Made by a program: the position numbers and the translations under genes
NCBI GenBank assembly: GCA_963769935.1
Contig: CAVYNY010000008.1
Span: 1-64,000 of the forward strand
Length of the DNA: 64,000 nt
Direction: 5' to 3'
Source of the DNA: an uncultured delta proteobacterium
GTDB lineage: Bacteria > Desulfobacterota > Desulfobacteria > Desulfobacterales > JAFDCJ01
Notes under the pieces: generated by a model
The model's database searches: none
What the model saw: only the letters and a program-made list of their open reading frames with translations
Told to the model about the DNA's origin: nothing
Shown here: one piece after another, positions 11,939 to 19,155 of the stretch
How positions within the stretch are numbered: the stretch's first letter is position 1
How the letters are laid out: each line of letters opens with the position of its first letter

Positions 11939-12601
11939 GTGGATGTGGACGAATTTTTCTGCAAAATGGAAGAAGGCGCGCGAAAGGAGCTGCAGGGGGA
12001 TCTCAAAGAGGCCCTTGGCGTTTATGGGGAAGCCGAATCTCTTTACGGGGGGGATTTCCTGGCCGAGGAGCTCTATTCCCCCTGGGTGACGGCCAAAAGG
12101 GAGGAAATTCACAGAAAATATCTCGATATTTTATCGAAGATGGCTCACCTGTATGAGAAACAGGGGAGATTCAAAAAGGCCATTGTCTACAACAAGAAGT
12201 TGATCCAGGCGGACCCTTCCCTCGAGGCAGCCTACCGGAGCCTCATGATTCTATATGCAAATCGGGGCTTGCGTGCGGAGGCACTCAGAACCTATGAGGC
12301 ATGCTGCAAGGCGCTGCACCGCTATCCGAAAGCGATTGCTGGTGTCTATTTCTCGTTAGCGACTCCTTTTCTGGAGATTATCGATGCTCCCAATTTTGTG
12401 GTGGACTGGGCATATGGAAATTCGAAGGGCAAAACGACAGTTTTAAGAGTCGCCGGATCCTGTTGGGGTAATCCCGATGAACGCAGTCCCGCAGCGTTTG
12501 TCAATCAGGTCACAAAGCAGTGTTACCGGATAGAGATATATCTGGCCAAACGTTTCCGCCTCAAACCGGGCCTTTTTACCAGTTCCCTCGCCTTTATCTG
12601 A
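11939..12601 (+). pseudogene. Chimeric remnant: BTAD/TPR activator fragment fused to DUF927-like (phage primase-associated) fragment
   Basis: LYGGDFLAEELYSPW..DPSLEAAYRSLM (BTAD), then NFVVDW..GNSKGKTTVL..SCWGNP. Confidence 0.6.
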
Positions 12602-13032: not shown

Positions 13033-14301
13033 TTGACCTATGACGCTCAAAAGGATATTTTGACCCCCGAGGAGGTCTCCCAATATCTGCGCAAAAGCAC
13101 CAGCTGGGTTTACAAAAACTGGCCGGCATTGGCGGCAGGAAACTTGGAGGTTCTCTATTTTTTCCTGGAAAGGAGGACCTCTATGTGCGTCTATTTTGTA
13201 AAAGGCAAGGACAAGGGGTGGAGGTACGACTTCACCCTGAAGGGGATCAGGTACACGGAAGCCTGGTTCAAAACCAAAAAAAAAGCAAAGGAGGCAGAAG
13301 CAAAGCAACGAGAAGAGCTGAAAAGGCCGAAACTTCCGATTCCAACAGAACAGACCCCGATCGACATGGACTTCTTGGAGCTGGTAAATAAGCGACTGGA
13401 TCACGTTAAAGCGTATAATTCAGAACGGCATTACACGGATCATATATACATGGCCAGACGCTGGATTAAAGAATGGAAGGGATTAACCTGTTCGGAAATT
13501 TCAACCGACATGATCCAAAACTTTCTGCTCAAGCGATTGAGAGAAACCTCGCCATTCACGGCAAACAAGGAGCTACGGTATCTGCGGTCACTTTTCAATT
13601 ATGGATTACACCCGCGGTGCGAAACTTGATCACCCATAATCCGACCCGTGGCATCGAATTTTTTCCGGTGGACAAACAGATCAAATATGTGCCACCGAAC
13701 GAGGATGTGTTGCGTGTGATTTTAGCCGCTGAGCCGGATAGTCAGGAATATTTGTGGACGATCGCCCTGACAATAGCAAGAATGAGCGAGATAAACCGTC
13801 TGACATGGCAGGATGTGAATTTTACGGAAAGTTACCTGGTGCTGTAAACACGCAAGAAAAAAGGCGGGCACCGAACTCCGAGAAAGATCCCCATGACCGA
13901 CAAGCTACTTGATGTGCTTTCTCGCCGTTACGCCAAATGTGACAAAAGCGTACCTTGGGTGTTTTGCATCGTTACTGGAGTCGCAAAGTTGATGAATGGA
14001 TGGTCCCTACAAAGAGCGAAAAAAGATCATGCGAACGCTCTGCGACAGGGCTATAGTCAGATACTTCCGCTACCATGCGTTTCGTCATTTCGGCGCATCT
14101 TTGCTTGAGCAGTCAAATGTTCCGATTGGATCGATTCAGCGGATTCTTGGCCATGAAAACAGGTTAACGACTGAGCTTTATCTGCATTCAATTGGGGAGT
14201 CTGAGAGGCAAGCGATGGTCGTGTTCAATGAACGTTTTAGAAATTTTTCTCACACAGATTCTCACACAGATGAGAAAAGGGATATGACCGAATCGTCCTA
14301 A
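13033..14301 (+). pseudogene. Excisionase-like HTH plus tyrosine integrase, broken by frameshifts and a stop
   Basis: LTPEEVSQYLRKSTSWVY HTH; integrase from ATG 13183 with AGGAGG RBS; ARMSEI, HAFRH, LGH, ELYLH catalytic motifs; TAA at 13845. Confidence 0.85.
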
Positions 14302-16578: not shown

Positions 16579-16655
16579 CGGGACGTGGCTCAGTCTGGTA
16601 GAGCACAGCGTTCGGGACGCTGGGGTCGCTGGTTCAAATCCAGCCGTCCCGACCA
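16579..16655 (+). tRNA. tRNA-Pro (CGG)
   Basis: CGGGACGTGGCTCAG..TT CGG GA..GGTTCAAATCC..CCCGACCA. Confidence 0.97.
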
Positions 16656-16743: not shown

Positions 16744-16992
16744 TTATTTTATCAGCCGGGGATCAAATTCGAATTTTGTGGGACTGCCGATCTTTAATTT
16801 CGTAAAATCAGGGTGAACCGGATTGATAAGGTGTAAACTACCGCAAACCCTTTGCTGTTCCATCGCCCACCATAACGGCGTGAGCCCTCACCGGTAAAAG
16901 CACGATCTGCAATATGCGCTTGTACGATTCGCCAAGCAAATGACATTATGAGAATACACCATGTTCAAGGCGGCCAAGCAAATCTTCAACTA
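16744..16992 (-). pseudogene. Xre/RES toxin-antitoxin remnant
   Basis: Antitoxin C-terminus VEDLLGRLEHGVFS* overlapping ATG 16946 of RES fragment AFTGEGSRRYGGRWNSKGFAVVYT, joined to RES C-terminus LINPVHPDF..FDPRL. Confidence 0.75.
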
Positions 16993-17142
16993 CGAAATCG
17001 TGGACACAGATTTTCACAGATGCACACAGATTCAAAAACCAATGAACCCCATCGCCTCGGCAAGAAAAAAACAGGCTAATTTCTTCCTGCAGACTATGCT
17101 GGACTACACCTTCCGCCGCCGGGCGAACCTAAAATAGTTTAT

Positions 17143-17299
17143 CTGTACTACTAATATGAAAATTCTTTAAATTTTATTAAGCAAAATAAGCCGAAAGGGC
17201 TGAAATTCTAATAATTCAAACAGGTTGTAATAAAGTTTCAGCATGGGCAAAAACGGTCATAATCGCCCACAAAAATTTGGTTGCGGCTCTGCCGCGCTG
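17143..17299. mobile_element. Non-coding mini-element sharing both ends with the adjacent 1.74-kb element
   Basis: Left 43 bp match 17297-17339 at 39/43; right 25 bp identical to 19016-19040. Confidence 0.8.
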
Positions 17300-19040
17300 T
17301 ACTACTAACGTGTAAATTCTTTAATTTTTATTAAGCAAATCATGCTGCAAGAGCTGTAATTCTTGTAATTGGAATATGTTGAGTTTGAATGACAGCAGTG
17401 ACAATTTGACGACCCTTATCAGTCAAAACATAGCGAAAAGTGCGCGGTACCTTACGGATGATTCCGTGGGCGCGAAGCATACGGAGTCGGTAAGTGATCT
17501 GGGCGGACAGACGCCGTTTTGTATGGGTATCATGATTTCCGGGATAGAATTGTTGCTGAATATCTCTATTTCTAAATCCGTTGATATTGAATTCGCCTCG
17601 GCTGATTATTTCCAGAAGGGATGTATCCTCTTTAGCCCATGGACGGAGGGCACGAACCCGCTGGCTCTTCCAACAAGTGGGGCGGCAAACCGACTCGACG
17701 ATCTCACCCAACAAACGATCCACTTTGATAGAGGCCAGGGCAGCCAGATACCGTTGGTTGGATGCTTGAGAAATTTGGGCTCGCCGATGCAGATCGGCAA
17801 TGCCTTTACGCATTCGCTGCCAGGAACAGAGGCCTTCGGGGTCCCCTTCTTTTGGACGATACACCTTGAAATCCCGGGTGGTATTCATTGTGGTCTCGAC
17901 GCGAAGCACACTTCCCTGCTTGTCGTAGATTTTTACCGAGTTGGCTTTGAGTTGATGCTTAAGTCGGATGCCTTCGGTCCGGTGTCTATAATGGCTGACG
18001 ACTTCACCTTGGAAATTGCCATGGGGTTTTTTCCCCAAAAAACGCATGACATCCTGACTGCCGAATACCGAGATGCCGCTGCGTACCAGGGTTGGGTAGA
18101 TCCTGGCCAGGCTTTCAGCAGATTTGAACATGATATCCGTGGCCCATTCACTCTGGTGGGTCGACCAATAATAAGGTTCCCGAAAAGGTGCCAGCATGGC
18201 ATCATGATCCGGATTCAAACGACGGGCAATTTCGTCGAGTGTGGCCGGCCAATTTGTCTGCAATTGCTGGTTCATCAATTCTTGGGCTTTCTCGATTTGA
18301 TCAATCCACGGAAAACAGTTATCCCGTCTTTGGTAACGAAGTCCCAGTCGATCCATTTGTCGGGCCAACCATTCGCGCCCGTTGAGACAAATCTGGATAG
18401 AGAAGGGAAACCAGCTTTGGATCCGTGCATTCATAAACCCGAATATTTCATCGATCCAGTAATGATACAGAAACAAGCACTTTCTTATTCGCGGCTGGAG
18501 CTCGAGTTTTTTCTGTTGCCGGTTCCGAAATATTTCATAACTTTGACAGGGTTCCACGGCGGTCAAAACGCAAATCAATCCCTTACGAATCCCATCGCGC
18601 TGAACAATTTTACGGGCCTGCTCCTCCTTATTTGTCTTGGCAGAAGCAAGATAGATAACAGGGCGAGCCTCCCGGTGAGCTTGTGCACAGGAGGCTTCTT
18701 TCAATTGTTTGCTTTTATCCAGAAACATTTTACCGCAATCTTTCAATCGAACCCCTGTATTCCAAAGGTAGCTCATCATTCCACTTTTGACTGCCAAAAC
18801 TCGCAACGTGCCGCGCAGAACCAAACGGTCAAAACCGCTAAGATGCCCGATGATTTGTTTTTCATATTGTGTTATAAAACTGTCCATGGCGTCCTCCTGG
18901 GTGTTGGTGGTTGTTGGCACTTCCAACAATACCCCAGTTGTGACGCCATTTCTATTTTGTTTTTCAAGTGCTTGCAAAAAGCATTTGAATCGAGTCAATC
19001 CGAAATTAAGAGCTTATTTGGTTGCGGCTCTGCCGCGCTG
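17297..19040 (-). mobile_element. Unclassified single-gene insertion element (no TIRs, CTG at junctions, subterminal GCGGC-TCT-GCCGC hairpin)
   Basis: Ends defined by the mini-element; removal restores a dispersed repeat. Confidence 0.8.
17340..18887 (-). CDS. 515-aa putative transposase/replication-initiator-like protein with C-terminal winged helix
   Basis: AGGAGG RBS before MDSFITQ; motifs GFDRL, LNGREWL, KIYDK..LRVETT, YRLRMLRAHGII..RY. Confidence 0.75.
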   Translation of the reverse strand: MDSFITQYEKQIIGHLSGFDRLVLRGTLRVLAVKSGMMSYLWNTGVRLKDCGKMFLDKSKQLKEASCAQAHREARPVIYLASAKTNKEEQARKIVQRDGIRKGLICVLTAVEPCQSYEIFRNRQQKKLELQPRIRKCLFLYHYWIDEIFGFMNARIQSWFPFSIQICLNGREWLARQMDRLGLRYQRRDNCFPWIDQIEKAQELMNQQLQTNWPATLDEIARRLNPDHDAMLAPFREPYYWSTHQSEWATDIMFKSAESLARIYPTLVRSGISVFGSQDVMRFLGKKPHGNFQGEVVSHYRHRTEGIRLKHQLKANSVKIYDKQGSVLRVETTMNTTRDFKVYRPKEGDPEGLCSWQRMRKGIADLHRRAQISQASNQRYLAALASIKVDRLLGEIVESVCRPTCWKSQRVRALRPWAKEDTSLLEIISRGEFNINGFRNRDIQQQFYPGNHDTHTKRRLSAQITYRLRMLRAHGIIRKVPRTFRYVLTDKGRQIVTAVIQTQHIPITRITALAA

Positions 19041-19155
19041 AGAAAATCTGTGTCCCAAAATTTTTTACCACTTTTCAAATGATCAAAACAAAGGAAATGA
19101 AACCTGATCTGACCGATTTCCAGGCCGCTTTGCGGGAGGAGCATCACTCTCAGCT

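Follow-up and report, generated by a model that had tools for sequence, protein, structure and literature searches.

A 64,000-nucleotide stretch of the genome of an uncultured deltaproteobacterium (hereafter the window) almost certainly harbours a genuine and recently mobile insertion sequence together with its non-autonomous mini elements. It is probable, in our judgement, that this element belongs to a widespread and undescribed class of bacterial transposons, which would employ a tyrosine nickase of the Rep_trans/TBP fold in single-strand transposition independent of HUH enzymes, and which would combine IS91/Helitron-like ends, thousands of clusters, stacking MITE-like minis that gather repeats, and a hairpin end that captures genes. 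Searches of the openly accessible full-text literature did not turn up any account of a transposase of the Rep_trans type, and in the accessible parts of two reviews HUH enzymes are the only single-strand or rolling-circle transposases listed (PMC10288648, PMC5714925).

Two head-to-tail units are situated between a tRNA gene (16579-16652), which was the sole match in an Rfam scan, and the gene for a type II dehydroquinase (aroQ) (Table 1). An initial interpretation of this locus, made from the letters of the window and here called the sequence-only reading, had described L ends identical at 39/43 positions between the units, identical R ends (25 nt) with a GCGGC/GCCGC hairpin, the absence of terminal inverted repeats in either unit, and a 515-aa ORF on the minus strand whose stop abuts L and whose product (P0001) carries KIYDK..LRVETT and a C-terminal winged helix. 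All of these features are present, but the positions of the unit ends were a few bases off and are corrected in the table. Sequencing run X1 contains the 1741-bp element with one difference. Promoter and terminator scans gave chance level only. A 568-codon open frame runs antisense to the transposase gene (17376-19082, plus strand) and is probably a shadow frame.

Table 1. Features of the tandem locus and of the protein that it encodes (window positions unless residues are given)
Feature	Position	Strand	Remark
Host dispersed repeat (~160 bp), left part	16987..17146	.	Insertion target in its right arm, 10-bp period
Host tetranucleotide CTGT serving as target, external to the element	17143..17146	+	Empty sites: CTGT then GAAAATC
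Non-autonomous mini element, 154 bp, non-coding	17147..17300	+	Solo copies C34, C16
Mini L end (putative origin end): ACTACTA and A/T-rich imperfect inverted repeat	17147..17185	+	40-nt profile conserved among relatives
Mini R end (putative terminator end)	17275..17300	+	Stem 17283-17287/17291-17295; terminal tetranucleotide CTGT 17297-17300, which doubles as target of the long unit
Autonomous element, 1741 bp	17301..19041	+	Equal length and ends in L002, at a different site
Long-unit L end (putative origin end)	17301..17339	+	Directly after the ORF stop
515-aa putative transposase ORF (P0001)	17340..18887	-	Stop abuts L
E331 codon, predicted metal ligand (R329-x-E331)	17895..17897	-	121/121 members; RepD R212/E214 (PMC4797284, excerpt)
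Y321 codon, predicted catalytic tyrosine (K319-x-Y321-x-K323)	17925..17927	-	121/121 members; RepD order R189/Y191/K193 (PMC4797284, excerpt)
D20 codon, predicted metal ligand, first strand	18828..18830	-	120/121 members
Long-unit R end (putative terminator end)	19016..19041	+	Stem 19024-19028/19032-19036; terminal tetranucleotide CTGA 19038-19041
Host repeat resumes	19042..19055	.	Matches continuation of empty copies; arm of inverted pair I2
P0001 domains	Residues 1-390, TBP-like/Rep_trans-like region; ~392-515, winged helix		Predicted model

The ends were surveyed in 80 metagenome loci, the best 80 of 562. A distal end, downstream of the ORF and of the type TAGTAGT^NCAG, was present in 61 of the 73 relatives with enough flank as compared to 17 of 1460 shuffles; the matrix was seeded with this motif, and the conserved A-rich inverted repeat 14-40 nt further inside was not seeded. 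In these 61 relatives the distal end lies 35-75 nt past the ORF match, a tightness that is partly built in since the search spanned only 110 nt, and the distance from hairpin to ORF at the other end ranges over 20-585 nt. The hairpin end was found in 68/77 relatives, with second hairpins in 4/72, and the base just outside it is C in all 68, which the search pattern did not require, as well as in 63 of 69 distinct two-ended sites. The hairpin pattern turned up in 30 of the phylum's 401 genomes and its reversed control in none, a result far outside chance expectation. Ends of identical type flank relatives down to 45% protein identity. A homologue of 32% identity on a plasmid, called an ArsR regulator by RefSeq, shows this hairpin end in variant form, and in distant members (~30% identity; L018, L021, L025, L028, L230) a variant hairpin end consists of a CCTAA-CCGG stem with AACCA after it.

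The letters at the two junctions show how the element is inserted. In 25 of 53 elements, every one of them with the commonest word ACAG, the two junctions carry the same tetranucleotide, and in the other 28 they carry different ones. The last three letters agree in 27 elements and disagree in 26, and there is hence neither a target duplication nor a core. Empty copies of the host repeat, four in the same genome and 5/5 fetched from congeners, read CTGT followed by GAAAATC, and the version of the empty site expected under a core model has 0 occurrences. The empty copies are one 10-bp unit longer than the copy in the window and are hence paralogues rather than the exact allele. The element thus inserts without duplication after a target tetranucleotide, CTGT^G on the window strand, as seen from nine empty copies and 69 filled sites, and the general target is 5'-C^NCAG on the ORF strand, or CTGN^G on the other. 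Both the target-duplication model, with which tetranucleotides and empty sites disagree, and the CTG-core model were rejected, the latter since just 27/53 agree in the last three letters and the empty sites are without the letter that it predicts. The CTG that the sequence-only reading took for a repeated core is instead made up of the first three letters of the target tetranucleotide (outside, at L) and of the terminal tetranucleotide (inside, at R).

These counts also bear on an IS110-like element moved by a site-specific recombinase through a double-stranded circle with a short CTG core. The identical tetranucleotides, the absence of terminal inverted repeats and a joint resembling a circle junction would agree with such an element, but it is very improbable given that every identical case is the commonest word, that about as many elements differ in the last three letters, that the empty sites fit the model with no core, and that the protein has no match to a DEDD, serine or tyrosine recombinase family. 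IS110/IS1111 membership was accordingly rejected, with no DEDD family match and no shared core, and so was a DDE insertion sequence, terminal inverted repeats and target duplication both being absent.

Which of the two words belongs to the element can be read from discordant sites. Of the 69 distinct two-ended sites 41 are discordant; one repeat period away, the distal tetranucleotide recurs in seven and the hairpin one in none, with 34 undecided. Near-identical minis of genome G408 keep ACAG or CCAG as the hairpin word and have ACAG, GCAG or ATAG as the distal word according to the flank. On these comparisons, together with the empty sites, the hairpin end carries the element's own terminal tetranucleotide, and the distal tetranucleotide is that of the host; it must be noted that in some minis in which no distal end was found the hairpin-side words look target-like, which counts against this assignment. 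Elements often reside in CACAGA-type 10-bp repeats and are also found in unique DNA. End sequence and target letter covary in L073-L152 (TAGTAGT^A, TAGTAGA^T, TAGCAAT^G), and a search by eye for a guide-pairing rule linking end sequence to target found none, kinship being a confounder. The 160-bp host repeat itself (16987-17146 and 19042-19055) has inverted CACAGA-type arms and at least four further copies in the genome, and its copies in congeners are 78-94% identical; those at C21, C35, C1 and C13 have 88-92% identity and are uninterrupted by an insertion in 4/4.

Besides one full element the genome contains three solo minis, at C34 (100% over 160 nt), at C16 (98%) and of a shorter type at C11, in agreement with the non-autonomous derivatives anticipated by the sequence-only reading. 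In runs X1 and X5 the C11 type shows up as the long unit with 1666 nt skipped internally, and it has other flanks in X1, X5 and X6, four runs of two studies having been examined; the empty-site joint at the C11 mini was not found in these four runs, and no circle was seen in any run. The first 81 nt of the window's mini and long unit are only 79% alike, and the mini therefore derives from a related element and not from the long copy beside it. Read along the ORF strand, the first letters of the mini after the target C are ACAG; the target C^NCAG is thereby recreated, and the long unit sits exactly there. Most likely, then, the tandem arose by insertion of the long element into the target recreated by the mini, with the mini first and the long unit second; this order is favoured since the reverse would need T where C is nearly invariant. 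In four other tandems (L108, L115, L169, L172) the second unit likewise begins with ACAG in 4/4. As the two units differ, the tandem is no concatemer of one element. The R-CTG-L joint, earlier likened to a circle junction, does have that form, but the elements on its two sides are different ones, and insertion accounts for it better.

Minis of other genomes (L153-L192, L050-L072) are filled with nested short repeats, comprising GC hairpins and CACAGA, CGAAAT and TGAACT arrays, and some have a second hairpin end in the manner of a Russian doll. Among the near-identical 219-bp minis of G408 (L216-L220) the 3-nt hairpin loop varies (AAA, ATA, GGA) and the stem is fixed, which suggests recognition of shape or exchange of ends.

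Relatives were detected in 22 of the 401 genomes of the phylum and in 10/23 of the genus, with one full-element copy in the window's genome and one to three in others. When several copies share a genome, their ORFs are 0-4 nt apart and their flanks are unlike, and dN/dS of the ORF is 0.06-0.15 versus five relatives. The tRNA-aroQ interval holds neither element nor host repeat in four congeners, which were chosen for close tRNA and aroQ matches, wider intervals being left out. The proposal of a mobile, non-DDE, non-HUH element with asymmetric ends and a non-autonomous derivative is borne out by these data, and when flanks of homologues are aligned the ends are kept and the homologues are not syntenically fixed. 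Every one of the 7998 scored candidates is a homologue; of the 120 listed, 113 come from contigs no longer than 5 kb, which is typical of repeats. With a family profile, at E<=1e-30 the search recovered at least 2,283 clusters formed at 50% identity, and 8,752 at 1e-10, where counts at the weaker threshold may include matches to the winged helix only. Named hosts are deltaproteobacteria, Chloroflexota, Binatia and Candidatus Angelobacter, in addition to plasmids of Burkholderiaceae and Rhodococcus (13 records); in the ESM Atlas unnamed clusters only were found.

The protein P0001 has no match among Pfam, NCBIfam and PHROGs beyond a weak winged helix, and none among PDB sequences. Among 61 family members there was no match to a transposase or recombinase family and no conserved HUH column, only seven scattered triplets, and neither an RNase-H motif in P0001 nor DDE family matches were seen; the protein thus matches none of the curated transposase families searched, as had been supposed. 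The winged helix is indicated by weak Pfam matches at 464-500 and by a MarR structural match (Z 7.9) at 392-515. The predicted model has a pLDDT of 88 in full and 96 over residues 1-390. In Foldseek against the PDB there was no match at E<=0.001; with the full model RepSTK1, TBP and RepDE appeared as high-probability rows (E 0.012-0.046), and with the domain alone TBP was present and Rep_trans absent among the matches listed. In a fold comparison against 48,161 chains TBP took ranks 1-5 (Z 7.0-8.1), followed at ranks 6-7 by RepDE (Z 6.7, 180 residues aligned, rmsd 4.8) and RepSTK1 (Z 6.6, 190 residues, rmsd 5.0). These scores are middling, since best Z values of 7-8 are common for unrelated models, Rep_trans ranks below TBP, and a phosphoglucomutase, which is unrelated, reaches the same Z of 6.6 over half the length. 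Transposase or recombinase folds were not among the matches listed in the fold searches. BFVD gave seven matches at E<=0.001, with viral Rep proteins present, and its rank 8 is an inovirus protein identified as Rep_trans in the accessible part of PMC13107129.

Rep_trans proteins share the TBP-like sheet, and in RepD the metal ligands are D46, D142 and E214, accompanied by conserved R189, Y191, K193, R212 and D146 (PMC4797284, in the part available). The family of P0001 displays a near-invariant set in the order of the Rep_trans active site, D20, E247, D251, K319, Y321, K323, R329 and E331 (112-121 of 121 members), K323 being present in 112 and R329, like E331, in 121. Y321 sits on strand 316-323 of the model, and D20 falls on D46 of RepDE and D9 of RepSTK1 if the strand is ungapped (alignment starts 13/39 and 12/1). 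At the position of motif I the family has Q/E-x-E-x-A/S-x-D (E247-x-A-x-D251), with Q/E in place of the R of Rep_trans RxDxAxD, and motif II (T/SxYxG) was not seen in the alignment of 121 members. A comparison by hhalign with a 50-member Rep_trans alignment was negative (probability 0.1-0.3%); when one lobe was picked post hoc, its YxK and RxE motifs aligned with those of Rep_trans at 10% probability, and a scan of viral contigs for Rep_trans controls found nothing. With the profile comparison negative, the link to Rep_trans is one of fold and motif order and not of sequence. The suggestion of a Rep-like protein is in this sense upheld on the predicted model, by a fold match, if a middling one, and by motif order, whereas the expected relationship at profile level did not materialize. 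The modelled fold and the motif order make it quite probable that a Rep_trans-type nickase is the transposase of the element. A second invariant cluster is found in the N-terminal lobe (E112, Y141, Y143 in 121/121, and N169; residues 112-169) and could be a second active site or a DNA-binding face.

It is conceivable that P0001, with a TBP-like saddle and a winged helix, is a passenger or regulator and that the hairpin-ended units owe their movement to another enzyme, for example a transposase of the RAYT or IS91 kind. The TBP fold is indeed the top match, the plasmid homologue bears the name of a regulator, and many genomes carry the hairpin end without a detected gene. This is nevertheless very improbable, as the ends accompany the ORF in relatives of 87% down to ~32% identity, the end variants follow the protein clades, and the invariant D/E/Y/K/R set comes in Rep_trans order. 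Furthermore, none of the 11 long ORFs behind hairpin ends in 30 pattern loci, seen over <=1.5 kb downstream, matches a transposase family. That the units are what is left of an integrated small rolling-circle plasmid or phage, with a Rep that occasionally integrates at origin-like sites, is extremely improbable. A Rep-like fold with a fused winged helix does recall the Rep-Arvir replicases (PMC13107129, excerpt), and viral Rep proteins are among the BFVD matches, but 0 of 50,697 phage records matched, IMG/VR held one partial locus, and what is found at many chromosomal sites is a fixed two-ended unit of ~1.7 kb, along with minis that have both ends.

The most plausible hypothesis, which we hold to be probably correct, is a single-strand, IS91-like rolling-circle transposon with a predicted tyrosine nickase of the Rep_trans type. 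The winged helix would bind the inverted repeat in L, and Y321, with D20/E247/E331 holding the metal, would nick, at the junction of the target CTGT with ACTACTA, the strand antisense to the ORF, staying attached to the 5' end. Host replication would displace the nicked strand, a second nick would follow after the element's own tetranucleotide (CTGN) just past the hairpin, and the freed strand, or its circle, would then be connected to another target site that has been nicked behind its CTGN (CTGN^G). Minis keep both ends and could be moved in trans; an element beginning with ACAG after the target C would recreate the target, so that a second element may land at its foot. Missed or shifted termination would explain why the hairpin end collects passengers and nested repeats. 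Variability in length and passengers does concentrate there, as one-ended events predict: four relatives (L084, L090, L131, L093) have, between the hairpin end and the transposase gene, a passenger gene in opposite orientation, namely 23S_rRNA_IVP four-helix-bundle genes in three and a split PDDEXK_3 gene in one. The presumed active strand rests on analogy because the hairpin folds with nearly equal energy on the two strands (-6.0 versus -5.8 kcal/mol). Purine-N-A triloops would favour the strand that carries them, here the ORF strand, and such triloops account for 28 of 55 parsed loops.

The main rival retains the same enzyme and cut sites and assumes peel-and-paste transposition like that of IS200/IS605, in which a single-strand circle leaves the replication fork and the donor is resealed, with no dedicated rolling-circle synthesis. 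In IS608-type logic a target tetranucleotide lies outside one end and a similar one inside the other, accompanied by a hairpin and no duplication, and this fits the present ends equally; the low copy number of the full element also accords with it. We consider this rival rather unlikely but well short of negligible, given that there is only a single strong hairpin, that length variation and passengers cluster at the hairpin end, and that Rep_trans-type enzymes use double-stranded origins and start rolling circles (PMC5714925, in the part available).

The IS91/ISCR elements (IS91, IS801, IS1294) are among the closest known systems and, like the present element, lack terminal inverted repeats. 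In IS91 a terIS hairpin and an internal cleavage tetranucleotide lie upstream of tnpA, oriIS abuts the target, no duplication arises, and the bottom strand is active; the accessible part of PMC13181058, from which this is taken, also supports the likenesses with the present element, i.e. a single transposase gene, unlike ends, no target duplication, a target tetranucleotide at the gene-downstream end with a hairpin and similar internal tetranucleotide upstream (68/77 relatives), and sometimes an extra gene between hairpin end and transposase. IS91 enzymes, however, are HUH nucleases with a helical catalytic tyrosine, whereas P0001 has no shared HUH and its Y321 belongs to one of the strands making up a TBP-like sheet; the insertion target differs as well, being CTGN^G. 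With the Rep_trans/MOBT relaxases (PF02486; RepDE 4CWC, RepSTK1 4CIJ) the model shares a crescent TBP-like sheet (Z 6.6-7.3; with TBP included Z 6.6-8.1 over 174-190 aligned residues, which is middling) as well as the acidic triad and the N' (D), III (YxK) and IV (RxE) motifs in the same order. It differs in the absence of a Pfam or profile match, in a large inserted subdomain, the fused winged helix, the altered motif I and the missing motif II, and known members serve plasmids, phages and ICEs, with no stand-alone transposon described in the accessible part of PMC5714925.

The archaeal Rep-Arvir proteins (DUF7845) likewise have a Rep_trans-like fold, a fused MarR-like winged helix and a hairpin origin, and two BFVD proteins named in PMC13107129 are among the top eight matches of the model; these are, as far as the excerpt of that paper goes, viral and plasmid replicases of archaea with a KHYYM motif, in contrast to a bacterial chromosomal element with target-specific insertion. 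P0001 has no Pfam match beyond the weak winged helix, and its motif differs from KHYYM. IS200/IS605 and RAYT/REP systems also show tetranucleotide-guided insertion without duplication, a hairpin end and many short non-autonomous derivatives, but have small Y1 HUH enzymes as compared to a non-HUH protein of 515 aa. The main text of a REP survey (PMC3733652), as far as available, did not contain the hairpin motif. Helitrons share the absence of duplication and the capture of DNA at the hairpin end, and the unit, when read on the window strand, closes with a GC-rich hairpin and then CT-purine-N, which resembles the Helitron 3' end with its CTRR. Unlike the element, which encodes no helicase, Helitrons are eukaryotic and use an HUH Y2-helicase fusion. 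The element would work like IS91, yet it is not a member of IS91, IS200/IS605, IS110, the DDE elements or, by profile, Rep_trans.

If the transposase is indeed of the Rep_trans fold, it would add a new enzyme class for transposition and exemplify convergence on the IS91/Helitron layout. The family, which is currently annotated as hypothetical or regulator, would account for an abundant unnamed hairpin repeat of deltaproteobacterial genomes. A 154-bp mini, one protein of 515 aa and a 5-bp target make up a small system that lends itself to direct tests, and an inserter that works seamlessly at a defined target could serve as a tool.

Elsewhere in the window, an ORF at 11939-12601 combines BTAD and DUF927 matches, and a phage-integrase gene is present in three fragments at 13033-14301.
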